Positions 2,457-60,063 of a stretch of DNA of 64,000 bases are shown here, one piece after another. Both the position numbers and the translations under genes were made by a program. Within the stretch, counting starts at the first letter, position 1; each line of letters opens with the position of its first letter. The notes beneath the pieces were generated by a model. The model did no database searches, was not told the origin of the DNA, and was given only the letters and a program-made list of their open reading frames with translations. The stretch is from Candidatus Bathyarchaeota archaeon (GTDB lineage Archaea > Thermoproteota > Bathyarchaeia > 40CM-2-53-6), in assembly GCA_963733055.1 (NCBI GenBank), contig CAVTBR010000003.1:480001-544000 (forward strand). Direction: 5' to 3'.

Positions 2457-3405
2457 TTAATCGCGATAATATTTTTGTGAGATTGTCTCCGCCGTCTTCG
2501 CTCCGGGTATTGCTGTCATGCATCCGTACTTGGTAGTGCTGATTGCCGCTACAACGTTTGCGAAGCATGCGGTCTTTTCAACGCTCCATTTCTGGAGGGA
2601 GCCGAGGATGAATGCGGCATCGTAGGCATCTCCTGCGCCGATCGTTGAAACTACTTTCACCTGGTAAGCTCTGATTCTCCTGATGCGGTCTCCGTATCCC
2701 ACCGTACAGCCTCTGCGACCTAATTTGACCGCCACGATTCGTGGGCCATTTCTTAGAAGACTTTCAATCGCATCTTGTACGCGGTTTTTTCGGGAAATTC
2801 GTCTAGCTTCTTCTTCGTCTAGAAGCAAAACGTCAAGATGCTCGAAGGATCCCTTGAAACGGTCGACTCCAGTCCCCAGTGGCACTCATTTGAGGATCAG
2901 CGGACACCAAGAGCCCTTCCTTCTTTGCCATGTTGAATAGAGAGATCGCACCCTTGCCCCATAGGTTTGGGTAAAGTAGGTATCCCGCAAAATGGAATGC
3001 GCTGCCATTCGTAAGATCCCTTTTGCTGAACTCGTCTGGCCGCAGGGGCAGAATGTTTGAAACCACTGACGACTTGTTGCCGTCGTTATACACGATCACG
3101 GTCGATATCTCAGTCTCCGCGTCCCTACGGATGATTAATTCCTTAGTGGATACACCGCAACGATCGAGTCCGTCCAACACAAGTCGCCCCACGTTGTCGT
3201 TGCCAATTTTCCCCATGATGGAAGCGCGCCCTCCAAGTTTAGCAAAACATTGCGCAACGTATCCGGCGCTTCCCGCAGGGACAGCACAAGCCGCCTTCGC
3301 GGTTCCTAGGATAGACCAGCGTCTAGGAACTTGATCGACTCCCGCAAGTATGATGTCGAGAGCCACTTCGCCGAAAGTAATTAGGCCAGAAGTCGCCATA
3401 ACCAC
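2457..3405 (-). pseudogene. PfkB carbohydrate kinase split by a +1 frameshift near 2850-2862 (real or sequencing error)
   Basis: N-half (GSAG, GKIGNDNVG) is in ORF 2833-3405. C-half (VKLGRRG, STIGAGDAYDAAF) is in ORF 2457-2885. Removing one base joins them. Confidence 0.8.
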
Positions 3406-16000: not shown

Positions 16001-16483
16001 GTGGATGGAATTATGTCAAACGTTCCAGAGAAAAAGCAGTTACTCCAGGCATTCAGAATGCTGAGTACGCAGGCAATCATGCTACATCAAGCAGTTGCCG
16101 ATATGCTGAACCTGAATATTACGGACTACAAGTGCATGGATCTGATTGCTCGTCTTGGGCCGATGACAGCAGGTAAACTTGCGGAGCACTCCGGCCTCAC
16201 AACTGGCGCCATAACCGGTGTAGTAGACAGGTTAGAAAAAGCTGGGTACGCAAATCGAGCCGACAATCCAAAGGACAGGAGATCGATTATCGTTGAATTG
16301 ACTTGGAACAAGAAGAATCAGAAAGCATACGAAGAAATATTTCTTCCATTGGAGCGAAAAGTAGAGAAACAAGCTTCTTCCTACACCACCAAAGAACTCT
16401 CACTATTCATTGAACTGATACACAATACAGCAAAGATCTTGCATGAAGAGACCATTAGACTAACCAAGAAATCGGAGAATTAG
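16001..16483 (+). CDS. MarR family transcriptional regulator
   Basis: TAGKLAEHSGLTTGAITGVVDRLEKAGY...DRR wHTH. Confidence 0.9.
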   Translation: MDGIMSNVPEKKQLLQAFRMLSTQAIMLHQAVADMLNLNITDYKCMDLIARLGPMTAGKLAEHSGLTTGAITGVVDRLEKAGYANRADNPKDRRSIIVELTWNKKNQKAYEEIFLPLERKVEKQASSYTTKELSLFIELIHNTAKILHEETIRLTKKSEN

Positions 16484-16503
16484 TGAAATTTCATGGTGAT
16501 AAT

Positions 16504-17091
16504 ATGAGCGCATCCGCAAGAGAAAGGACAGAGTCAAAAGTACTTGCTACTAAAGTAACTAGTGATGAAGCCTTTGCAAAAGGCACTGAATGGAGCCAAA
16601 GAACTTTTCTTTACAAAAATGCTACTGAAAGCATAAGGGCTGGAAGGCCCTTGGCCGCGGGCCTCTACTACCACAAAAACGGCAGGGGCATTGTTAGCAT
16701 CTTTTCGGGCATCGAGGGCGGCTTTCGTGCGCGGGTGGTGCAGGTTGACAATGCCGGAAACTTGAGCTTTGCAAAGAAGAAAGTAGGTTCAACAGATCCT
16801 CCAACTAAGGTCGAAGAAGCCGTAGATAGAGGCAAAAGACTTGCAGACGCATCAGAAGTGCTTGCAAACACCGCATTCTTGGAGGCCAATCCGGGAGAAC
16901 TTATTGTATTCGGCTCCAAAAATGCAACAGCATTGACTGGAGGAAAAGAGATTGAAAAAGGATATTATTTGACGGTTCATAAGAAAGCCAAACTAAAAGT
17001 CCTGCTTGCCGAACAACTAACAGAAAAAAGAAAAGAAGTTGCTGAGTTAGAAAGGAAACTAGAACAGGCAATAAAAGCCGATTTCGATTGA
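16504..17091 (+). CDS. Hypothetical protein with C-terminal coiled coil
   Basis: Open frame of about 195 codons with protein-like composition; no recognised motif. Confidence 0.6.
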   Translation: MSASARERTESKVLATKVTSDEAFAKGTEWSQRTFLYKNATESIRAGRPLAAGLYYHKNGRGIVSIFSGIEGGFRARVVQVDNAGNLSFAKKKVGSTDPPTKVEEAVDRGKRLADASEVLANTAFLEANPGELIVFGSKNATALTGGKEIEKGYYLTVHKKAKLKVLLAEQLTEKRKEVAELERKLEQAIKADFD

Positions 17092-17102
17092 ACCCACGAA
17101 AG

Positions 17103-17122
17103 TGGTGGGGCCGGTCGGACTT
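17103..17122 (-). repeat. Degenerate tRNA 3'-end fragment (att-like site 1)
   Basis: TGGTGGGGCCGGTcGGAcTT matches the 23169/47885 repeat at 18 of 20 positions; minus strand ends ...CGGCCCCACCA. Confidence 0.65.
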
Positions 17123-23168: not shown

Positions 23169-23195
23169 ATGGTGGGGCCGGTGGGATTTGAACCC
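23169..23195 (-). repeat. tRNA 3'-end duplication (att site 2)
   Basis: 27 bp identical to 47885-47911; minus strand GGGTTCAAATCCCACCGGCCCCACCA; no 5' tRNA half. Confidence 0.9.
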
Positions 23196-23264
23196 CCGTT
23201 ATCGTAGGGTTCGATAGCCTTATTTGCACCATCCGACGATAGCCTTTTGCGGAGCTAAACCCTC

Positions 23265-33558: not shown

Positions 33559-34749
33559 GTGAAGAATCGTGAGAGATTCTACATGGAGAACAACAAACTC
33601 ACCATCATGAAGGTGCTTGCATTACGACCTCGTGATGCTAGAGGCGATGGCTGGGCATCCGGACAAGAACTTCAAAACGCAACTGAACTCTCGCCCAACG
33701 ATATCAATGACGCCGTTATCCTATTGAAAGACGGAGGTATAGTTGAACTAGAGAAACAACTCGGAACGGCGCCCTTCCGCTTTCATGCGGTCACTCTAAC
33801 AGCCAGAGGAAGAGGCTACTGGGAGAAATTGCAAGTAAATTCCCAGAATGAATTTCCTCGCACATTACAAAACGCTCCATATCGGTTGTCCCAAACTCCT
33901 AATGACACAACTGAAGATGAAAAATTCATGCGTGTGGCAATCGAGCTATCCAAGCAATCCACACCTGAGGACAGCAGGCCACATCCTAAAGTCGGTGCAG
34001 TTGTAGTCAAGAATGGCGAGATATTAGACCACGCGTTTTGCGGTGAATATGCTCAAGGAGATCACGCTGAATATACTCTGCTTGAAAGAAAACTTGGAAA
34101 GATGGACCTGACGGGTACAACGCTTTACACCACTCTTGAACCTTGCACACTTCGAGGCCACGAGAAGATGCCTTGCGCCGACAGAATCATACAGAGAAGA
34201 ATCGGCAGAGTTGTGATAGGAATGCTTGATCCCAATCCCAACATTCAGGGCAAGGGCTTGTATAAGTTAGACAAAGCGGGCGTGAGAGTACAACTAGCGG
34301 AACGGCTAAGTCGCGAAATTAAGGACATCAACAAAGAGTTCATAGCGGCTCAAGAAGGCACTCCAACAATTAACATGGCAATACCTCAGACAAAAATTTA
34401 CGAGGACTTAGCAAACATTCTAAGTCGGCTGGTACTGCGATGGCAGAGTTACAAAGACGAATTACCAAATGTGAAGTGGACGCCCGAAGCTGTTGAAGAG
34501 ATTAAAGAGAAGTTCAGTAGCGATAAAGAGGATCTTCTTAATTTATTATCCCGCTCGCCAGAGATCGATTTAAAGGTCAAATCTCAAACGAAAACAATCA
34601 TAAGTCAAATTGATGGGTTCATATTTTTTAAAATCAGTTTCGAGATACCCCCCCAGAGACACGAGCAACTTCAAAATTTCGAGTATAAGGCAGAACAGGC
34701 GGCTGACGCCGCTCAAGCTCTACACGATTGGTTGCGGACCGAGAAGTAG
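33559..34749 (+). CDS. wHTH + RibD-like Zn-dependent deaminase + helical domain protein
   Basis: PKVGAVVV, DHAE, TLEPC...PC and DPNP motifs; no RibD reductase domain. Confidence 0.8.
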   Translation: MKNRERFYMENNKLTIMKVLALRPRDARGDGWASGQELQNATELSPNDINDAVILLKDGGIVELEKQLGTAPFRFHAVTLTARGRGYWEKLQVNSQNEFPRTLQNAPYRLSQTPNDTTEDEKFMRVAIELSKQSTPEDSRPHPKVGAVVVKNGEILDHAFCGEYAQGDHAEYTLLERKLGKMDLTGTTLYTTLEPCTLRGHEKMPCADRIIQRRIGRVVIGMLDPNPNIQGKGLYKLDKAGVRVQLAERLSREIKDINKEFIAAQEGTPTINMAIPQTKIYEDLANILSRLVLRWQSYKDELPNVKWTPEAVEEIKEKFSSDKEDLLNLLSRSPEIDLKVKSQTKTIISQIDGFIFFKISFEIPPQRHEQLQNFEYKAEQAADAAQALHDWLRTEK

Positions 34750-34818
34750 TCGTAATAGGGCTTCGCTGCTAAAATTGGATACGCATCACGAAGGCTTTCC
34801 TTGCGATCACGACAGCGC

Positions 34819-37242
34819 TCATAAACGCCGAACAAGAATTGCACCCACTATAGACAACACAACTACCAGAGCTGCTAAGGCTATCCAAGATGATGAATTG
34901 ATCCCGGTAGATGCATAGGGTGCGACCATTTGCGAGAATGACTTGGAGAAAGTGATGGCGCGTGTTTGAGTATATGGAAGACTCACAGTCGAAGCATACA
35001 TCGTGGTATATCTTGATACCAAAATGTAGTTCCTGCACGATTCGTTCTGACGATTCGTTTGGCAGGTTGTCGTAGTTGAGCTGGCCATTAGGACGGACTG
35101 TTGGATAGGAGTGGTAAATGATGTGGCGGTAAAGTACGATGTTGAAACATTCACTGTTGTCGATACAGAAGTAATTGTCGGATAGCTCATCAGAAATGTG
35201 CTAAGAAATGCGACGGCAATAATAAGGAGTGATAAGAGGTTGGCAGATTTTTTCTTAGGCCGAGTAATCGTTGCAGTCTGCGGAATCGACATGAGATTTC
35301 GCAGCCTATAGACGAGAAGAGTAAGACCAATTCGGCCGTCCTTTCTCCAGACGCGCCGTTTCTTTGCGTGAACGCATCGTGAGTGCATGTCTCCGATCTC
35401 TGTTTTAACCATCGATTCGCCAAGTCGAATTGTTTGACGACACCCCCGACACTTGGAAGGATTCATAGCGCCGAAACTCGCCGTGCCATGCCATGGCGTC
35501 GAGAGTATCCGTACGGGTACCGGATATGACCTGTAAACCGCCCCGAAGTAAGTCAAGACCAAACCCAGGATTACAAGGATAAGCAGGCTCGGGATAGCTG
35601 CAACAGCGAGGATGGCTGAAATTACGGCAAGCAAAAATCCTGTCCAAAACACCTTTGGACTTGCCACTATTGGCCTGACAGAAGGTTGAATTGGGGGTGG
35701 AGAAGACGGGACAGTGGCGTACAGTTTCTGAAGTGCATCCGCCTGCTGTCTACTCAGGACATCAACTGGGTGTTGAGGTCTCGATACGACAATCTGTTGT
35801 GGTCGTCCTGGTTCACACAGAGGGCAGAAGTAACGATTAGATTGTAGATCGTAGGTTAGTCTAAAATTATGGCGCAAGCAAACGAGTTGCTGATGATCCA
35901 CGAACGTCGATGAAGGTGCAGCTGCCTTCTTTTGCGAATTGACGCACCTAAGGGCCTCCTGTTTGTCCTGAAGAGGCTGAATCTGTGACGGAATATCCAC
36001 AACAATCTGTGGTCGACCTTTGTATTCGGTTATCATGCCGGTAACGCTGACCCACTTGTTTACAAATGACTCCGGTCTGATACCGCCCGTTTGCATCATG
36101 TCCAGTACGTCAGCCCAGATGACCAGATAGAACGCTCCCTTGCGCCAATCTCCGAAGTTAAGGAACATGTACGGTTGATTTCGCCGAGTCACGTCTCTCT
36201 TGTAGTTGGTGACTTGGCCGACGATTTCTAGCATCTCTCCGGTTCTTGAAACAATCGTGTTGGTTTTCTCAGCAAGTATAACTTCGTACTGAGAAATGTA
36301 CTCTATCGGCTTGCGTACCGTCGGGATCGGTCGAACTCTGGCAGGCGGCTTTGGCGGTACGTAACTCGGAGAGATGAACTCCGATAGTGAAGGGATTTTG
36401 TCGTAGTCTAAGAAGCAGATGGCCTCAAACTTCTCTGCAAGCGCTCTTACCGCAGGGATTCCTTTCAGGTCGTTTATTAGAGGAGAAGACTGCGGATCGA
36501 GGAAGTCCTTTCTTTGGAATAGTATGTTTTCTCCGTCGCTATATTTTCTCCAAAGCGCGGGCTTTGCTGCAACCGCTTTAAGTCCTAGGTAGATGACGAT
36601 TGATGGAAAACGGTCCATCCGGGCCGTGGGAGCGGCATTGGATCTATCTGGATGAATATAGTTCAGATGACCGAGTACCTTCGTCGGAGATTTTGAAAGC
36701 TCGGGCAAGTACATGCCGTCATAATCTATCAGCGTGAGAGACTTGCTTCTCACCATGATGTTTCCGTGTTGAAGGTCACCGTGAGCAACGCCAAGTTGTT
36801 CAAGACGATTGACGATTCTTAGGAAGTCGTCCGCAAGCCATGTAATTTCATTCGGTTTCGCGAGATTGCGTTCGATATGGAGATTCAGAACATCCCCGGA
36901 GAGCCATGGCATTAGCAATATGGGGTATAGGTTTCCGCCGACACGTATTCCTTCTATCTGAAGACTGGCTTTGACGAACGTCCCGTCTGCGTTCTTTTCT
37001 AGGAACCGACTAATCGCGTCGTACCTGAATTGCAGGTCTCCAACTTCTCGATAGAAGCATCGAACAGCCCAATTATCACTTGCTCGAGAAAGGTGGTAAA
37101 TCAAAGCGAAACCGCCGGTCTTCACACTGGGCAAGCCAAGTGGATTTGTCTCGACTCGACAGGTTTGTAATTCCTGGTCCTTGAAGGCATTTTTGGGATT
37201 CTGTACTGCGAGCTGGTATTCGTCGAGCCTTGGTAGTCCCAA
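34819..37242 (-). CDS. Ser/Thr kinase of TerY-P type fused to OB-fold, Zn fingers and TM helices
   Basis: GGFALIY, AVRCF, HGDLQHGNI and LIDYDGMY motifs; OB-fold; CxxH/CxxC and CxxC/HxxC pairs; several TM segments. Confidence 0.85.
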   Translation of the reverse strand: MGLPRLDEYQLAVQNPKNAFKDQELQTCRVETNPLGLPSVKTGGFALIYHLSRASDNWAVRCFYREVGDLQFRYDAISRFLEKNADGTFVKASLQIEGIRVGGNLYPILLMPWLSGDVLNLHIERNLAKPNEITWLADDFLRIVNRLEQLGVAHGDLQHGNIMVRSKSLTLIDYDGMYLPELSKSPTKVLGHLNYIHPDRSNAAPTARMDRFPSIVIYLGLKAVAAKPALWRKYSDGENILFQRKDFLDPQSSPLINDLKGIPAVRALAEKFEAICFLDYDKIPSLSEFISPSYVPPKPPARVRPIPTVRKPIEYISQYEVILAEKTNTIVSRTGEMLEIVGQVTNYKRDVTRRNQPYMFLNFGDWRKGAFYLVIWADVLDMMQTGGIRPESFVNKWVSVTGMITEYKGRPQIVVDIPSQIQPLQDKQEALRCVNSQKKAAAPSSTFVDHQQLVCLRHNFRLTYDLQSNRYFCPLCEPGRPQQIVVSRPQHPVDVLSRQQADALQKLYATVPSSPPPIQPSVRPIVASPKVFWTGFLLAVISAILAVAAIPSLLILVILGLVLTYFGAVYRSYPVPVRILSTPWHGTASFGAMNPSKCRGCRQTIRLGESMVKTEIGDMHSRCVHAKKRRVWRKDGRIGLTLLVYRLRNLMSIPQTATITRPKKKSANLLSLLIIAVAFLSTFLMSYPTITSVSTTVNVSTSYFTATSFTTPIQQSVLMASSTTTTCQTNRQNESCRNYILVSRYTTMYASTVSLPYTQTRAITFSKSFSQMVAPYASTGINSSSWIALAALVVVLSIVGAILVRRL

Positions 37243-37968
37243 TTATTCCACTCTCAACATGAGAATTGTGACATCATCATTACGCATAATTCCCGAACCC
37301 CTAGCCGAAGATAACCAAGCGAGGAAAGTTTCAGTGTCAGCGAAAGACGCGATTACCTCCCAGGGGAATAGGCCCGCATTTAGCTCATGCAGGAACCATT
37401 GAGCAGCGGCGTCGGTCATCCAGAAGAAGAGGTCTCCGCTCGACCATTCTCCCCTCGTGGATTTTATGGAAGGCATCTCTCTCTCGCTGCGTCTGCTGCA
37501 TATCAAAGGAGGGGTTGACCCAAACTCCTTCTCATCGCTTATGGGAAAGCTAACAACGCCTGTTGGCTTTTTCACGAAGAGGCATGAATCACCCGCAGCG
37601 ATAGCCTCCCAGCTACCATCTTCGCCAAAGCATGTCCCGAGAAAGGTCGCGAAAGCACCACGTTTTCTCTTTTCCTCCGCATACCACGGGAGCGTCTTCG
37701 GATCGACTATCCTGCGCCAGATTCTTGCTCCTTTGTTTACCGCTTTCTTGAAACGTTCGTCGGCTGGCAGGCCGGAATTGACAAACGCTGCAACAAGGAC
37801 GCTGGCCCAGAGTGATGCGAAAGAACTCTCTGTTGCACCATCGGAAATCGCTACGCTAAGCCTTTCGGAAAGTAGTTCCCCTGAAAGAGACGGCTCGGAA
37901 GCGTCTTCGTATTCCGATGGTTCATTTCCCTGTTTCTGGGATTTGAAGACGCTCAGACTTGCCTTCAA
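37243..37968 (-). CDS. PP2C-like phosphatase (TerY-P triad)
   Basis: K.G....YED, AISDGATES, GDSCLF, MTDA and RNDDVT motifs; TTG start 2 nt after the vWA stop. Confidence 0.88.
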   Translation of the reverse strand: MKASLSVFKSQKQGNEPSEYEDASEPSLSGELLSERLSVAISDGATESSFASLWASVLVAAFVNSGLPADERFKKAVNKGARIWRRIVDPKTLPWYAEEKRKRGAFATFLGTCFGEDGSWEAIAAGDSCLFVKKPTGVVSFPISDEKEFGSTPPLICSRRSEREMPSIKSTRGEWSSGDLFFWMTDAAAQWFLHELNAGLFPWEVIASFADTETFLAWLSSARGSGIMRNDDVTILMLRVE

Positions 37969-37969
37969 T

Positions 37970-38815
37970 TTACCGTAAGCTGGTTGGGCGCGTTCCAATA
38001 TCTACGAAATTGATAAGCTCGACCATACCTGCATTGAAGACGAAACCACGAGACCCCTCCGAAACAGGCACCCCCTCCTGTTTTGCAGCTGCGACTATAT
38101 GTGGAGGCAGGGAGCTAGAAATGCGGAAGAGCGATTTAGCAAACTGGTCCGGAAGAGCGTCATTATCTGGAAAGAGAATTGGTGCGGCACGCTGTGAGGA
38201 TAGATGAACGTTGAAAAGCAGCGTGTTTCCGTCCGTACTGGCGATGGCCCTTAATTCGTCCGCGGCACCAGTAGGATCACCGTCGGTGGCTTCTCCGTCC
38301 GTTATATTGATGATAATTGGCGGGAAACATGCAGGATGTTCCGCAACCCATGGCTGTAATAGGACTCTCGCCAACCGTAGGGATTCGCACATCGGGGTTC
38401 CACCATTGGCAACGGGATCGAACCAAACCGGAAACTTAACTTTCTCCTCAACAAGACCGCCGGCCCCATCTTGCACTTTGCGAGTACGGTCTTCAACGCG
38501 TAAAGGAGAATTGGCTAGTTCGCTAACTGAGACGATTTGACGTCCGGAAATTGCGCCACCCAATCTCGGACCTACGTCACCCCCATAACCGATCACAGAA
38601 ACGAAATAATAGTCCCTGACGCCCTCGGACTTCGTGCATTTTATCACCAAGTTACTCAGAAGTTTGTTGATCGCGTCAGATGCGCCGTCAGCTTTTTTGA
38701 GCGAAGCCTCGCCGCCTCCGAACGGGTCAGCCATTGAGCCGGATTGATCCAGCAGAAAGACGATGCAACTAGGATTAGTACGGCTAATTTCGGCTTCGTA
38801 AGTCAAATTGATCAC
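37970..38815 (-). CDS. vWA (TerY-like) domain protein
   Basis: LLDQSGSM MIDAS motif, GGTPM and ITDGEATDGDP. Confidence 0.9.
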   Translation of the reverse strand: MINLTYEAEISRTNPSCIVFLLDQSGSMADPFGGGEASLKKADGASDAINKLLSNLVIKCTKSEGVRDYYFVSVIGYGGDVGPRLGGAISGRQIVSVSELANSPLRVEDRTRKVQDGAGGLVEEKVKFPVWFDPVANGGTPMCESLRLARVLLQPWVAEHPACFPPIIINITDGEATDGDPTGAADELRAIASTDGNTLLFNVHLSSQRAAPILFPDNDALPDQFAKSLFRISSSLPPHIVAAAKQEGVPVSEGSRGFVFNAGMVELINFVDIGTRPTSLR

Positions 38816-38908
38816 GCCTGATGGACGCCCTTGCAGCCAGATGCTATTTAGAATTTGCTAGTTCCGGGTCATTCGAGTTAATCGAGCTTCCTCAGGACCC
38901 TGGATTCT

Positions 38909-39190
38909 TCAGCGGTCGAAATTGGTAGGAATCACGATGTCTCCTCCTTCACCGGAGACTATCACAGCGGTGTGGGTTCTTTCGATACCTTCAATCGGTT
39001 GAATCTTCCTTATTACAAGATTTGAGAGAGACTTCATGCCAGACATCTCAAGATATGCGATCACATCATAAACTCCGGTAACAGCGCAAGCCCATTTTAC
39101 GCCGTTGATTTCTCCGATTGATTTCGCAACATCATAGGCTCTTCCTAGCTTCGACTGTACCAAGACAAATGCCCCAACCATACGAATCAA
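38909..39190 (-). CDS. Stand-alone Lrp/AsnC ligand-binding (RAM) domain protein
   Basis: AFVLV...VTGVYDVIA...IEGIERTHT. Confidence 0.85.
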   Translation of the reverse strand: MIRMVGAFVLVQSKLGRAYDVAKSIGEINGVKWACAVTGVYDVIAYLEMSGMKSLSNLVIRKIQPIEGIERTHTAVIVSGEGGDIVIPTNFDR

Positions 39191-39919
39191 CTATGGTGAC
39201 TTTTTCTTTCCGTAGAGTTTATCGAGAGTATTGGCTTCTTCTCGCGTTAGCACCCCGTCGGTATTCAGAATTTGACCCGGCGGAGGAGCCGAATATCTTC
39301 CAGGAGAAGCAGAGCGAATTAACTGCTTAGGTTGCGGACCCCATAGGCTCGCAAAGACTCCCATTTCTGTTTGTACCTCTGAGAGAACAGTTTTTTCCTC
39401 TATCAGCTCGATGTTCCTATTCATTCCCGAGTATGTTAGATTAGCTGACCCAACAAACGCGATCCGTTGGTCTACAATGTATAACTTCACGTGAACTAGC
39501 TGACGTATGGAAAGCACCTTAACAAAGAGTGGAATACTGCTGGCCTGTTTGCGCGTTAAGTTTTTGACAAGAGTGGCTGCTATGGCCACGACCGCAATTA
39601 CAACTAGCGCAAGACCTGCGTAGCTAAGGATGAAGGCCCCCACGATGCCGATGAACAAAGCCAGAATGAGGTAACGCCAAGCACGGCGGCTGAGGCTGTA
39701 AACAGATTTTTGCCCGAGCATACTCAACGCCTGTCTATGTCCATGTCCACTGGAATCGGAGGTTACCAAACAAACTACGATCCCTTGCCTCGCTTTGGCC
39801 AAGAGAAGTCGTGCATATTCAGGAGAGAGGTAGGGCGAAACTATATCGAGTGACTTGGTGGCGCTGCGAATCGAAGGAAGCACATACTGTCCTACGATGC
39901 CGCTATGTACGAGTCCCAC
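39191..39919 (-). CDS. Single-HKD phospholipase D/Nuc-like protein with a two-TM insertion
   Basis: LDIVSPY, HVKLYIVD...GSANLT..G...N.E; a hydrophobic hairpin splits the domain. Confidence 0.85.
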   Translation of the reverse strand: MGLVHSGIVGQYVLPSIRSATKSLDIVSPYLSPEYARLLLAKARQGIVVCLVTSDSSGHGHRQALSMLGQKSVYSLSRRAWRYLILALFIGIVGAFILSYAGLALVVIAVVAIAATLVKNLTRKQASSIPLFVKVLSIRQLVHVKLYIVDQRIAFVGSANLTYSGMNRNIELIEEKTVLSEVQTEMGVFASLWGPQPKQLIRSASPGRYSAPPPGQILNTDGVLTREEANTLDKLYGKKKSP

Positions 39920-43956: not shown

Positions 43957-43985
43957 TGGTGCGGCCGCCTGGATTCGGACCCGGG
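43957..43985 (-). repeat. Degenerate tRNA-Gly-like 3'-end fragment (att scar of a different tRNA)
   Basis: Minus strand CCCGGGTCCGAATCCAGGCGGCCGCACCA = T-arm + acceptor CGGCCGC-A-CCA; no 5' half. Confidence 0.6.
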
Positions 43986-44202
43986 AGTGTGTCGGCATCC
44001 GTGGTGCTAGCGCCGCAAATCGAGCCACTGATCTACTGGCTTTATGTTTTCGAATAAACCTCTCTGAATGCAAACGCTAAAGGGAAACCGTGCCTATTAC
44101 GTAGCTGAACGGAGTTCAGAAGAACGTTGTCTTCACCTGACCTCTCTCAATTAGTGAAGACCCACCACGTATACGCAGTGAGTCCCTTCGGATCCACTTG
44201 AT

Positions 44203-44230
44203 GTTGGACCTAGATCCATCTAGGTTCAAA
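44203..44230. repeat. Xer/dif-like 11-6-11 recombination site A
   Basis: GTTGGACCTAG-ATCCAT-CTAGGTTCAAA with inverted arms. Confidence 0.65.
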
Positions 44231-44235
44231 GCACA

Positions 44236-44580
44236 CTAAGCGGAGATATTATTCTCGACTTTGGACAAAAACGCTTTGAAAATTGCGCGCGAGGTCACGG
44301 GCATTCTAAGTAGCGTCACTTTTGTGGCTTCGGCAATAAGGGGAAGCGCTTCTCTCTTGCAACGAAGTTTTACGTCAAACCTTCTGGGCGCTACTTCAAA
44401 AACATCAACGTGTATGCTGTCTCTCGCGTCTTGGGTGACTCGTGCGTCAGGCAAAGCCTTAGCTTGTGCCTCGATCTGCTTGGCCCAGCGTTGAAGGCCC
44501 TCTAGCGTTAGACCTTCTTTCATGTCCTCAAGTTTTCTTTGAGTTTCTTCGAGACCTCTTACTTCTATTCTAATTCCCAA
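44236..44580 (-). CDS. Hypothetical protein inside the dif-flanked module
   Basis: 114-aa TTG ORF; N-terminus IEVRGLEE..RKL is reminiscent of HK97-gp10-like proteins. Confidence 0.6.
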   Translation of the reverse strand: MGIRIEVRGLEETQRKLEDMKEGLTLEGLQRWAKQIEAQAKALPDARVTQDARDSIHVDVFEVAPRRFDVKLRCKREALPLIAEATKVTLLRMPVTSRAIFKAFLSKVENNISA

Positions 44581-44602
44581 GAATCTTCCCTACTGTATGC
44601 AC

Positions 44603-44849
44603 TTAGGCTCTATCGTGTCGTGGCGTGATACCAGGATAACGGAAGTCTCCGTCGTGGCCGCAATTCAGGTGACAGTCCTCCTTGCCTCCGGTACAGAGAA
44701 CTACCATGGTGCGCTTCCCAGCTACCTCTTCCGGGATTGGCGCGGCTGCGCTCCCAGACGAGTTCCTTGCCGCAACACTCGCAGCGACCTCCTGCCCTAA
44801 TCCAAGCCTGTTCTATTTCCTGCTGAGCGAAGTCATAGTCGTCGGGCAT
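44603..44849 (-). pseudogene. HNH-like Zn-binding endonuclease, frameshifted at about 44700
   Basis: GRCECCG...WEAHH in one frame, VVLC....EDCHLNCGH in the next. Confidence 0.65.
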
Positions 44850-45001
44850 AGACTTGTCCCCTAATTGACCTAAAGGCTTCCTCGATATTTGAGCAATATA
44901 TCGAGCTGCATAAGTTTCACAGTAGTTTCGGTTTTGCCGACAACACTTTCATCGCGAAAGATGCTGTGGCTTGCTCGGTTTAAGAAAGCGGTTCTCGTTC
45001 G

Positions 45002-45029
45002 GTGGGACCTAGACTCAACTAGGTTCAAA
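45002..45029. repeat. Xer/dif-like 11-6-11 recombination site B
   Basis: GTGGGACCTAG-ACTCAA-CTAGGTTCAAA; arms match site A at 21 of 22 positions, spacer differs. Confidence 0.65.
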
Positions 45030-45700
45030 GTACACCGAAATGGCAGTGCATTTCGTGTATCGTAAACGAAGAGCCTTAAGAATTATCGAGTAGTAGCCTA
45101 TAATCTCCTCCACAGGCTAGCGACAGCTTCTCCGTCAACGACAGCATTCCTCGCCCTGACACCGTTCAAGTTGTGACAGGCAATCCTCGAAAATATCTCC
45201 TGATTGCCCAGGTTCTCTAACCAGTTATCGATCTCTTCACAATGACCAAAACATCGGAGCCGTCGCTAAACCCCTCTAGCACTGCGTACCAATTGATGTG
45301 GTCTGGATCATAGTTTCCTTGCGTTGTGGTGAAAACGTATTTTTTTTCAGCTTTCCTTGCGAACGTTTGTTATAGCTTTCCTCATCAATTATGCTAACCT
45401 GTTCAACATTCGCTAAGTCGCCTACCCTAACAGTTGCGAACTTGTTATGCATCTCTTGGACCGAAGAAGAGTAGCGGGAGTGTGCGTTTAAGGTAAGCGC
45501 AACCACTTTGAGTCAAGGGAACCTACATCTCCTCCGTAGTTAGATAGATTTGCGCTCACCCACTGTAATCTAGTTCTGCAGTGACTGCAGACGCATCACG
45601 TTTTTGTGAGGCTATAGCATACGACATAATCAATCTGAATTGCACCGTGAGTGATCGAAAGTTCTTTGTGTCTCTCTCGGCAGCAACGACTGGTTCGCGC

Positions 45701-47884: not shown

Positions 47885-47916
47885 ATGGTGGGGCCGGTGG
47901 GATTTGAACCCACGAC
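47885..47916 (-). repeat. tRNA 3'-end duplication (att site 3)
   Basis: Minus strand GTCGTGGGTTCAAATCCCACCGGCCCCACCA with an intact T-arm but no 5' half upstream. Confidence 0.9.
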
Positions 47917-50361: not shown

Positions 50362-51324
50362 ATGTGCCCTGCGAAGCAATTGCTAGAAGTAACAGAAATT
50401 CAGTCTCCCGTACGCGAGCAAGTGGGTCCCTCACGCGCAGTTTCCAAGATCATTTCATTCGGGCTTTGGATGCGCAGCCAAGGGTACAAGGACTCAACCA
50501 CATATGGTGCTGTTGCCGCCCTGAAGGGGATCGCCAATAAAGTTGACTTGTTTGACACCGAAGGTGTGAAGCGATATCTTGCAAGCGCTCAACTCAGTGA
50601 AGGCCGTAAAGAAAAGATTACAGACGATCTGGCGCGTTTCTACAACCATGAGACCATCTCCTTTGACAAACCTCGCTACAAACGGATTGACAGACTGCCA
50701 TTCATCCCGCACGAGGCAGAGATAGATGGCCTCATAGCGAACCTAGGCAAGAAAACATCAGCATTCCTGCAGGCAATTAAGGAGACTGCGGGCAGGCCTG
50801 GTGAGGTATGGCAATTAGATTGGCGCGACATCGACATAACCAACAAATCATTGGTACTCACTCCACTAAAAGGATCGAATCCCAGACAAATCAGGATTTC
50901 GGACAACCTGATCTCAATGCTGAACAGATTGCCTCGATCCTCTGAGCATATCTTCCATTCCGAGAATGCTGATCTCATAGGCAGCCTCTGCAACTTTCGA
51001 ACCTGTTTCGAGAAACAAAGGCGGAAAGTTGCTTTAAGGCTCCAAAACTCTCGCATTAATCAGATAACTTTCAAAACTCTGCGGCACTGGAAGGCTACAA
51101 CGGAATATCACAAAACCAAAGACATACTGCACGTAATGCAATTGCTTGGCCACAAAAATATCAAGAACACCCTAGTCTACACTCACTTGCTAAACTTCGA
51201 TTCTGCTGACGACTGGATCTGTAAAGTTGCCAGTTCACAGGCAGAAATTCAATCACTCATCGAGGCTGGTTTCGAACATGTCCTTGCAAAGGAAGGTCTT
51301 GAATACTTTCGAAAGAGAAAGTGA
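50362..51324 (+). CDS. Tyrosine recombinase/integrase
   Basis: ETAGRPGE, K, KTLRHW and LLGHKNIKNTLVY motifs. Confidence 0.92.
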   Translation: MCPAKQLLEVTEIQSPVREQVGPSRAVSKIISFGLWMRSQGYKDSTTYGAVAALKGIANKVDLFDTEGVKRYLASAQLSEGRKEKITDDLARFYNHETISFDKPRYKRIDRLPFIPHEAEIDGLIANLGKKTSAFLQAIKETAGRPGEVWQLDWRDIDITNKSLVLTPLKGSNPRQIRISDNLISMLNRLPRSSEHIFHSENADLIGSLCNFRTCFEKQRRKVALRLQNSRINQITFKTLRHWKATTEYHKTKDILHVMQLLGHKNIKNTLVYTHLLNFDSADDWICKVASSQAEIQSLIEAGFEHVLAKEGLEYFRKRK

Positions 51325-58516: not shown

Positions 58517-60063
58517 ATGGTTCAAAAGGACAAAGACAACAATCAATCCAACGGAGCTACTCTCGGATTTGAGAGAACGCTCTGGCTAGCTGCCGATAAA
58601 CTACGAAGCAACATGGACGCCGCCGAATACAAGCACGTCGTGCTAGGACTCTTGTTTCTGAAACACATCTCTGACGCTTTCAATGAATTGCACGAAGAAC
58701 TGAAAAAAGATCCAGATGCGGATGCCGAAGACATTGATGAGTATACTTCTAGAAGAATTTTCTGGGTCCCGCCGCAGGCTCGATGGGATTACTTAGCAAA
58801 GAATGCTAAGAGGCCCGACATTGGAATTATCATTGATGAAGCGCTCGACGCTATCGAGAGAAACAACGCGTCCTTGAGAGGTGTTCTCGTCAAGAATTAC
58901 GCAAGACCGGGGCTAAACAAACAGAGGTTAGGCGAGTTAATCGACCTTATCGGAACGATCGGCTTGGGCGATAAGGAGAGCAGAAGCAAAGATGTCCTTG
59001 GGAGAGTTTACGAGTATTTCTTAGGGCAATTTGCGGATGCAGAAGGCAAGAAAGGAGGACAATTCTACACCCCCAGAAGTATAGTCCAGCTTCTAGTCGA
59101 GATGTTAGAACCATTCAAGGGCAGGATACTTGATCCTTGCTGTGGTTCCGGGGGATGTTTGTTCAGAGCGAGAAGTTCGTTGAAGCTCATGGAGGCCGTA
59201 TTACTGACGTTTCTATTTTTGGAGAAGAGAGCAATCAAACCACTTGGCGCTTGTGCAAGATGAACCTCGCTATTCGAGGGATCGACTCTAAGATCGATTG
59301 GGGAGATTCATTTCGGGATGATCAATTCAAAGATTTGAAAGCCGATTTCATCCTCGCGAACCCACCGTTCAATGACAGCGACTGGGGAGGACAACTGTTG
59401 CAGGATGACGTGAAATGGAAGTTTGGAATTCCTCCAATCGGTAACGCGAATTTTGCTTGGGTAGAACATTTCATCCATCATCTTTCCCCTGTCGGTATTG
59501 CTGGCTTTGTTCTTGCCAACGGCTCTATGTCTTCCAATACGTCAAACGAAGGAGACATTCGCAAGAATATTATCGAAGCCGACTTGGTTGACTGCATGGT
59601 AGCTCTGCCGCCGCAATTGTTCTACAACACAATGATACCCGCCTGCCTCTGGTTCGTGGCACGCGACAAAAAGAATCACAAGTTTAGAGACCGGAGTCGA
59701 CAGATTCTCTTCATCGATGCACGCAACCTGGGGATGCTAGTTGATCGAACGCACAGAGAACTCACCAAGGAGGACATCGCGAAAGTTGCGGACACCTATC
59801 ATTCGTGGAGAGGAGAAACTGGCAACAAGTATCAGGATATTCTCGGATTCTGCAAATCTGCCAGTCTCGACGAAGTAAGGAAGGAGCAATGGATTCTCAC
59901 GCCTGGAAGGTACGTTGGAGCAGAGGAAGAAGAAGACGACACGGAACTATTCGATGAGAAAATGAAACGTCTGACATCCGACCTTTCAGCCCAGATGAAG
60001 AGCTCCCAAGAGTTGGATGCAGAGATTAGGGGTAATTTGGAACGGATCGGATATGATGCTTGA
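58517..60063 (+). CDS. hsdM: Type I RM methyltransferase subunit, frameshifted (-1) in the G5 run at 59150-59154
   Basis: [23 protein letters not shown]|MF, ANPPFN and LTPGRYVG motifs; adding one G restores the frame. Confidence 0.9.

Follow-up and report, generated by a model that had tools for sequence, protein, structure and literature searches.

Paired palindromic sites in a tRNA-Glu island of a Bathyarchaeia genome: probable attachment sites of tRNA-targeting integrases around a small gene unit

What are the two similar, inverted-arm sites that lie 799 bp apart in the genome of a Candidatus Bathyarchaeota archaeon, and what kind of unit do they enclose? The sites, here called A and B, were found in a stretch of 64,000 nucleotides (the window, C3:480001-544000) of a three-contig assembly of 2,884,337 bases that is 96% complete (code G000). 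A first-pass annotation of the window had proposed that they bound an archaeal counterpart of a dif module, a gene cassette mobilised by XerA or by the integrase of a mobile element. The evidence assembled below points elsewhere. With a probability of roughly 65%, A and B are attachment-type (att) sites of integrases that target tRNA-Glu; they belong to an accretion array and bracket a small, probably dead unit. The two sites, written in the sense of the tRNA-Glu gene, are as follows:

Site A, 44203..44236, minus strand: GTGTG-CTTTGAACCTAG-ATGGAT-CTAGGTCC, then AAC.
Site B, 44996..45035 (the repeat proper, 45002-45035), minus strand: GTGTA-CTTTGAACCTAG-TTGAGT-CTAGG, then TCCCACC.

A repeat search returned the pair as a direct repeat of 34 nt, A at 44203-44236 and B at 45002-45035, with 29/34 positions (85%) identical and 799 bp from start to start. 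The 20-base core, GGACCTAG-N6-CTAGGTTCAAAG, occurs exactly twice in the window when up to three mismatches are allowed, compared with 0.00 copies in 100 dinucleotide-preserving shuffles of the same 64 kb. Across the whole genome, A and B alone match without mismatch; the remaining matches cost two mismatches (16-base pattern) or four (20-base pattern), which is the level of the control and of chance. Within each site, the 8-nt core arms are inverted at 7/8 positions (GGACCTAG against the complement of CTAGGTTC), the lone mismatch could form a G-T pair, and 6 nt separate the arms. Drawn as 11-nt arms, the inversion holds at 9/11 positions in A and at 8/11 in B. The description of the pair in the first-pass annotation was borne out: two sites with inverted arms and a 6-nt spacer share one orientation, where the shuffles expect none, their 11-nt arms are identical at 21/22 positions, the spacers ATCCAT (A) and ACTCAA (B) differ at three of six bases, and G(C/T)ACAC directly follows both.

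The 0.8-kb unit between the sites contains two open reading frames (ORFs) and no integrase:

44236-44580, minus strand: 114-aa ORF, putative Neck1 or tail-completion protein, HK97 gp10-like (PHROG phrog_5, E 6.8e-6, residues 1-62).
44603..44849 (ORF 44610-44849), minus strand: small Cys/His-rich, HNH-like gene, frameshifted.

The stop codon of the 114-aa ORF abuts site A. This ORF has no Pfam match; a paralogue with 37% identity reaches 21.0 bits on the Pfam family HK97-gp10_like (PF04883), just below the cut-off of 21.4, and the sole relative of the ORF among 5.8 billion protein clusters is 60% identical. The frameshift in the second gene is seen against an intact 90-aa homologue in the same-genus genome G018: the window matches residues 4-53 of this homologue in one reading frame (within 44610-44849), and residues 56-90 in a different frame (44606-44710). 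Its assignment to HNH is weak (PHROG 1571, E 0.0075 over 19 residues), and neither the window ORF nor the intact homologue has a Pfam match at E up to 1. The earlier claim of two enclosed genes therefore stands for two minus-strand ORFs, the first ending at site A, but the HNH-like gene is broken and its name is doubtful. The intact homologue in G018 has a tRNA-Glu 3' fragment ~90 nt downstream of it, so this HNH-like gene recurs at such junctions. Together, a Neck1/gp10-like gene and a frameshifted HNH-like gene fit a virus-like element that has decayed down to its tail end. The 40 relatives compared contain no copy of the A-B unit at high identity.

The 137-aa paralogue of the 114-aa ORF (matched at C3:18555-18893) lies, within C3:18262-18893, directly upstream of an intact multi-intron tRNA-Gly gene. 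This order mirrors that of the window, in which the Neck1-like gene is followed by site A and then by a tRNA-Gly 3' fragment.

The link between the sites and tRNA-Glu came from relatives. The motif was sought, with up to two mismatches, in 22 genomes of the same genus and 38 of other genera (a reversed control pattern gave one match), and a consensus of four sequences (A, B and a near match from each of two same-genus genomes) was scanned over three public collections, namely one genome each for 185,579 species, viral contigs, and metagenome contigs. The species collection yielded two matches, the same two genomes that lie behind the consensus, and 13 metagenome contigs carried the exact pattern. 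These 13 contigs and two genomes provided 15 outside loci. A scan of related genomes, as the first-pass annotation had suggested, thus did recover the motif, in 4/22 same-genus genomes, 0/38 genomes of other genera, and 12 distinct outside loci once three duplicates were removed; what it revealed was a link to tRNA-Glu and not to dif. In 8/12 distinct loci, the right flank matches the tRNA-Glu 3' 16-mer CCCACCGGCCCCACCA at 12-16 of 16 positions, and the right arm runs straight into the last 16-17 nt of tRNA-Glu (in the minus-strand sense of the window). Site B has kept the first 7 nt of this tRNA-Glu 3' block (TCCCACC), after which the similarity ends abruptly (8/16 against the 16-mer). Site A is a CTAG-armed palindrome from which the 3' part of tRNA-Glu is almost gone (right flank, 4/16).

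Comparison of the 250-nt flanks of 14 sites (91 pairs) showed sharing in three pairs, each on one side only:

L021 and L027: left-flank score 188, right-flank score 11.
L023 and L031: left-flank score 11, right-flank score 82.
L027 and L030: left-flank score 12, right-flank score 30.

One-sided homology that breaks at the motif looks like a site-specific recombination junction, and is hard to explain by an operator or an RNA hairpin. It is clearly improbable, then, that the palindrome travels at element ends in a role other than recombination, whether as the operator of a mobile-element regulator or as a hairpin in RNA or DNA, for instance one that stabilises 3' ends. Perfect arms and a semi-conserved spacer (NTGRRT on the tRNA-sense strand) would suit a sequence-specific dimer, the hairpins at A and B fold better than shuffles (z -3.5 and -3.8, plus strand), and site A directly follows a stop codon. 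However, such a role leaves unexplained both the break of flank homology exactly at the motif, on either side, and the fusion to the 3' end of a tRNA. It also fits poorly with the single arm change in L022 and L030 (G to T), which is uncompensated, and with the lack of a U-tract after either hairpin; neither site was listed by an intrinsic terminator scan. The extended outer stem beyond the hairpin was significant, with flank-only shuffling, at 1/14 sites (site A). For the same reason attC-like folding was rejected as a general feature, although outer stems can be drawn at both A and B. Site B, unlike A, is adjoined by a second hairpin at 45036..45066, with a loop of 6 nt and a stem of 10 bp in which one base is bulged.

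Another explanation derives the motif from an intron in the T-loop of a variant tRNA-Glu, of which it would be the 3' part; the whole block would be target-gene intron plus 3' exon copied at each integration. The host does possess a T-loop hairpin intron with a regular bulge-helix-bulge (contig C2, ending at 239164), and the left flank in a subset of loci faintly resembles the variable loop and T-stem of tRNA-Glu (6-8/12 positions). Against this, no bulge-helix-bulge can be drawn for the motif on either strand, and a 5' acceptor strand lies within 400 nt in 0/15 outside loci, where ARAGORN with introns allowed also detected no tRNA. The joint of the motif to the end of tRNA-Glu appears in 0/105 genomes of the order, and the T-arm is uninterrupted in the intact tRNA-Glu genes of G000 and of its relative G015. 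An intronic origin is accordingly very improbable.

The sites become more intelligible beside the arrays of tRNA-Glu fragments in the genus. Co-oriented clusters of the tRNA-Glu 16-mer on a single contig occur in 7/23 same-genus genomes. In stretches from G019, G004, G015, G018 and G000, the 16-mer was found 28 times with up to three mismatches. An inverted copy of the 5' arm of the T-stem (7 nt, at most one mismatch, spacer 5-7 nt) precedes 8 of these 28 occurrences, compared with 0.16 expected from shuffling; five further occurrences have an inverted copy with two mismatches, and the two intact tRNA-Glu genes have none. The arms covary from site to site (AACCCAC/GTGGGTT, TACCCAC/GTGGGTA, AACCCTC/GAGGGTT). 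The window arms, GAACCTAG and CTAGGT(C), share the outer GAACC...GGT with this array type, while their inner bases differ from it complementarily on both arms. The window pair ACCTAG/CTAGGT is therefore read as a CTAG-armed, compensated variant of the array palindrome.

Some of the fragments in these relatives enclose one- or two-gene units of 0.7-1.6 kb, a size class that includes the 0.8-kb A-B unit:

G019, 702 bp: HicB-HicA.
G019, 817 bp: small ORF and PIN protein (PIN pair).
G004, 1208 bp: LCM-type methyltransferase.
G015, 1573 bp: CitMHS transporter.
G015, 1057 bp: ParE and small ORF (ParE pair).

G015 also carries an integrase directly after a tRNA-Glu fragment.

In the host, the window itself lies within an island of ~50 kb downstream of an intact tRNA-Glu gene. 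The tRNA-derived elements of this island and its integrases, of which there are at least two, are:

C3:546744-546926 (66744-66926 if the window numbering were continued), minus strand: intact multi-intron tRNA-Glu(CUC) gene, 2.7 kb past the window end.
47886..47916, minus strand: tRNA-Glu 3' fragment, matching the intact gene at all 31 nt, without a 5' acceptor strand upstream.
23170..23212, minus strand: tRNA-Glu 3' fragment with a degenerate palindrome ahead of it (AACCCTA - 7 nt - GGGGGTT).
17103..17118, minus strand: tRNA-Glu 3' fragment (15/16), the most distal one recognised, of the 'AATTAAGT' junction type.
50362..51324, plus strand: tyrosine integrase (Pfam Phage_integrase, E 1.6e-15).
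C3:545946-546686, just outside the window: second integrase, 58 nt downstream of the intact tRNA-Glu gene.
43957..43985, minus strand: tRNA-Gly 3'-end fragment, 28/29 against two intact tRNA-Gly genes on the contig, no 5' half beside it.
44070..44190: repeated element of ~120 nt between site A and the tRNA-Gly fragment, its plus strand ending in the tRNA-3'-like AGTCCCTTCGG.

Sites A and B share their strand, the minus, with the tRNA-Glu gene and its three 3' fragments, none of which has a 5' half; the 'AATTAAGT' junction type is also present in G015, G018, G019 and G004. The ~120-nt element has three copies in G018 (76-86% identity), and recurs with other flanks in several peat-metagenome contigs; possibly it represents a conserved arm belonging to a further attachment site. 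A tRNA-Gly fragment and a repeat with a tRNA-like end adjoining A place A and B in a stack of integrated-element junctions. No Rfam family reached its gathering score in the window, and at E<=10 the sole match near the region, to a tmRNA model, corresponded to the tRNA-like 3' end at 47886.

On the preferred reading, which rests on the tRNA-Glu link, the array, the covarying palindromes of relatives, the repeat and the broken cargo gene, tyrosine integrases would target the 3' end of tRNA-Glu, with A and B as their att sites. The island would have grown as element after element integrated downstream of a single tRNA-Glu gene, each event leaving one more site, so that co-oriented sites would pile up with cargo between them. 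The 0.8-kb stretch from B to A would be one integrase-less unit, the remnant of a decayed virus-like element. The proposal has precedent, as tRNA genes are described as the usual integration targets in archaea, where tandem integration occurs, and inverted repeats around the overlap region as forming the core of archaeal integrase sites and of dif alike (passages in PMC8371274). The standard core of a tyrosine recombinase has just this layout: arms selected for inverted symmetry, 6-7 nt between them, and a position where integrated DNA meets its surroundings. The block identical to the host tRNA begins at about T-loop position 60, with the palindrome upstream of it, and the integrase is predicted to bind the palindrome and to exchange strands in or beside it. 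The A-B unit is probably now an inactive relic, because three of six spacer positions differ and the tRNA-derived part is almost gone; the spacer differences and the frameshifted cargo gene together argue against present-day A x B excision.

Several observations weigh against att sites of tRNA-Glu integrases. The tRNA block remaining in the window amounts to 7 nt at B and 3-4 nt at A, so the link of A and B to tRNA-Glu comes from relatives, and the motif-to-tRNA-Glu joint is missing from the 105 genomes of the order mentioned above. The metagenome loci were retrieved by the exact pattern, which makes their perfect arm conservation circular. Viral contigs gave no match in three scans, and no free element carrying the motif was found there. 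A second site was present within flanks of up to 2 kb in 0/15 outside loci, which makes a close pair such as A and B unusual for this variant. No gene recurred consistently among the 30 ORFs that neighbour the motif at 11 loci, and no integrase was regularly near the motif. The variable loop of the host tRNA-Glu(CUC) differs in sequence from the spacers of the common palindrome type. The variant palindrome, unlike the common type, abuts CCCAC without a T-loop between, and a T-loop-like TTCAAAG lies on its opposite side, inverted. A model aligning the spacer to the T-stem, and several inversion and footprint models for the origin of the palindrome, did not give the observed junction.

Two further candidates were set aside. 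Ends of the IS200/IS605 type were rejected for want of a Y1 or TnpB gene, and because the hairpin abuts the junction. A tyrosine-recombinase-like C-terminus at L030 was seen by eye alone; it had no Pfam or NCBIfam match and no relative in the host genome. At a different locus (L022, on a G016 contig), the motif stands beside a cas4-cas1-cas2 adaptation module, ~180 nt from the end of cas1.

The small units of the relatives raise the question of whether the genus maintains an active, integron-like or CIME-like (cis-mobilisable element-like) cassette system, of which the A-B unit would be one cassette. Integrase-less units of 0.7-1.6 kb, each ending in a palindrome and a tRNA 3' end, would leave the chromosome as circles, and integrases of resident elements would insert them at the tRNA-Glu array. 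The one- or two-gene units between fragments in G019, G004 and G015, three of five being toxin-antitoxin pairs, speak for such a system, as do flanks shuffled around the motif, arm covariation that points to selection on the sites, and an ORF of the same sense ending <=150 nt upstream at 10/14 motif sites. A further point in its favour is a 202-aa ORF that is nearly identical in three species and differently placed relative to the fragments. On the other side, no excised or deleted form and no joints were seen in the assembled contigs of four sequencing runs (share of the stretch <=0.16), the A and B spacers differ at 3/6 positions and the cargo gene is frameshifted, and the 40 relatives lack a high-identity copy of the unit. 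The limits of identity of the 202-aa ORF coincide with the ORF ends and not with att sites, and the best integron-integrase score is 58 bits (cut-off, 265). Small units would also be expected from larger elements that decay while keeping addictive toxin-antitoxin pairs. An active system of this kind is therefore unlikely. A broader version, in which the genus keeps a tRNA-Glu-anchored cassette platform whose resident integrases capture, shuffle and exchange units between species, with A-B as an old cassette, is offered as a tentative idea of low probability. It would amount to an integron-like system that uses tRNA attachment sites, and its units would comprise toxin-antitoxin pairs, transporters and genes of viral origin.

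The 202-aa ORF lies at 16483-17091 of the window and belongs to no Pfam family. Its DNA is 95-98.6% identical among G000, G015 and G018, and the neighbouring DNA just 67-70% identical among the same species; the high identity stops sharply at the ORF ends, and the side on which it lies relative to the nearest tRNA-Glu fragments varies. As judged from these alignments, a recent transfer of a single gene is suggested.

The dif module that opened the inquiry can now be weighed. It would require A and B to be a Xer/dif-type pair acted on by the host XerA. An 11-6-11 layout can be drawn, with arms inverted at 9/11 and 8/11 positions, and the best NCBIfam match of the island integrase is the XerA model, at 63 bits. 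The Xer-type geometry proposed in the first-pass annotation is in this sense real as a tyrosine-recombinase-like layout, but that layout is common to many tyrosine-recombinase sites and is not specific to dif. The Xer/dif label, for its part, failed. A scan with the XerA model (NCBIfam NF040815, cut-off 220 bits) found six tyrosine recombinases in the 96%-complete host genome, the best at 70.4 bits, while 4/14 control genomes passed the cut-off. No motif within two mismatches was found in 18/22 same-genus and 38/38 other-genus genomes, the host has two copies 799 bp apart and not one per chromosome, and in relatives the motif is fused to a tRNA 3' end. The direct orientation of A and B is also unlike that of pdif modules, in which the bounding sites are opposite (XerC/D versus XerD/C) and alternate. 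Among the papers listed on pdif and dif modules in relation to archaea, all were on Acinetobacter. A host-XerA dif pair is thus the most improbable of the explanations considered. As for the suggestion that XerA or an element integrase had mobilised the cassette, the XerA half falls away, and the fallback to an element integrase comes close to what the comparative data indicate.

The remainder of the island carries cargo of a kind typical for islands. It encodes type I restriction-modification, a NucS-like nuclease, a STAND NTPase, a TraG/HerA-like ATPase and a DNA methylase, and also a deaminase, a kinase/phosphatase/vWA set, a PLD nuclease and secreted proteins. The cluster at 33559-39919, comprising a cytidine/dCMP deaminase-domain protein, an 807-aa protein with a weak kinase match, PP2C-like and vWA-like proteins and a PLD-family nuclease, looks like a defence-type set, its matches being mostly below curated cut-offs. 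Two genes appear to be divided between overlapping ORFs, namely the type I methylase gene hsdM (58517-59263 and 59137-60063, both N6_Mtase) and a PfkB-family kinase (2457-2885 and 2833-3405); as with the HNH-like gene, frameshifts or assembly errors are possible.

Outside the island, a multi-intron tRNA missed by ARAGORN lies at about C2:238940-239164. It has a 25-nt hairpin intron in the T-loop, with a regular helix-bulge-helix-bulge-helix splice motif (UUCA/UGAG central helix, AAA and AGU bulges), and the AGTCCCTTCGG end of the ~120-nt element resembles the 3' exon of this tRNA. That exon occurs again 12 kb downstream (C2:251389-251404), this time without a 5' half, which hints at a further integrated element.

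One tempting but wrong label, archaeal dif modules, is removed by these comparisons. What emerges in its place is that uncultured Bathyarchaeia have closely packed arrays of recombination sites derived from tRNA-Glu, whose palindromic cores covary and some of which bracket one- or two-gene units. Should the units move on their own, they would represent archaeal cassette capture without an integron integrase; should they be immobile, the arrays would still be a natural set of sites for defining the cores of an uncharacterised group of archaeal integrases.

Among known systems, tandem accretion arrays at tRNA genes share several features with those seen here: behind an intact tRNA gene come co-oriented repeats of its 3' end, some with an integrase alongside, others separated by units that carry cargo only, and the sites have an inverted-repeat core. 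Tandem integration in archaea is described in PMC8371274. The arrays of this genus differ in that the units are very small (0.7-1.6 kb) and numerous. At the window sites, nearly all of the tRNA block has been lost while a perfect palindrome is kept, and the arms are CTAG and not CCCAC/GTGGG, abutting the 3' strand of the T-stem without a T-loop. Integrase-less, att-flanked remnants have a bacterial parallel in the CIMEs of Streptococcus.

Archaeal chromosomal dif/XerA, as outlined in PMC2958812 and PMC8371274, shares with A and B an imperfect inverted repeat, a 6-nt spacer and, as likely ligand, a tyrosine recombinase. The sites here, in contrast, are multi-copy, unconserved across the genus and fused to a tRNA 3' end in relatives, and no XerA-class recombinase was found in the host. 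The pdif modules of Acinetobacter plasmids resemble the present units in being small, often toxin-antitoxin pairs, with short recombinase sites in varied contexts; the sites here differ in being direct, in lying in a chromosomal tRNA-linked island and not on a plasmid, and in having no Xer link.

Integrons, finally, also form arrays of short, mostly co-oriented units that end in an imperfect palindromic site. Their attC sites are 57-141 nt long with R and L boxes, the cassettes are mostly co-oriented, and toxin-antitoxin cassettes are common. The bathyarchaeal sites, by contrast, are 34-50 nt long with one simple hairpin and without the extended folded stem, the island integrase scores 58 bits on the integron-integrase model (TIGR02249) against a cut-off of 265, and the array is anchored at a tRNA gene and not at an attI.

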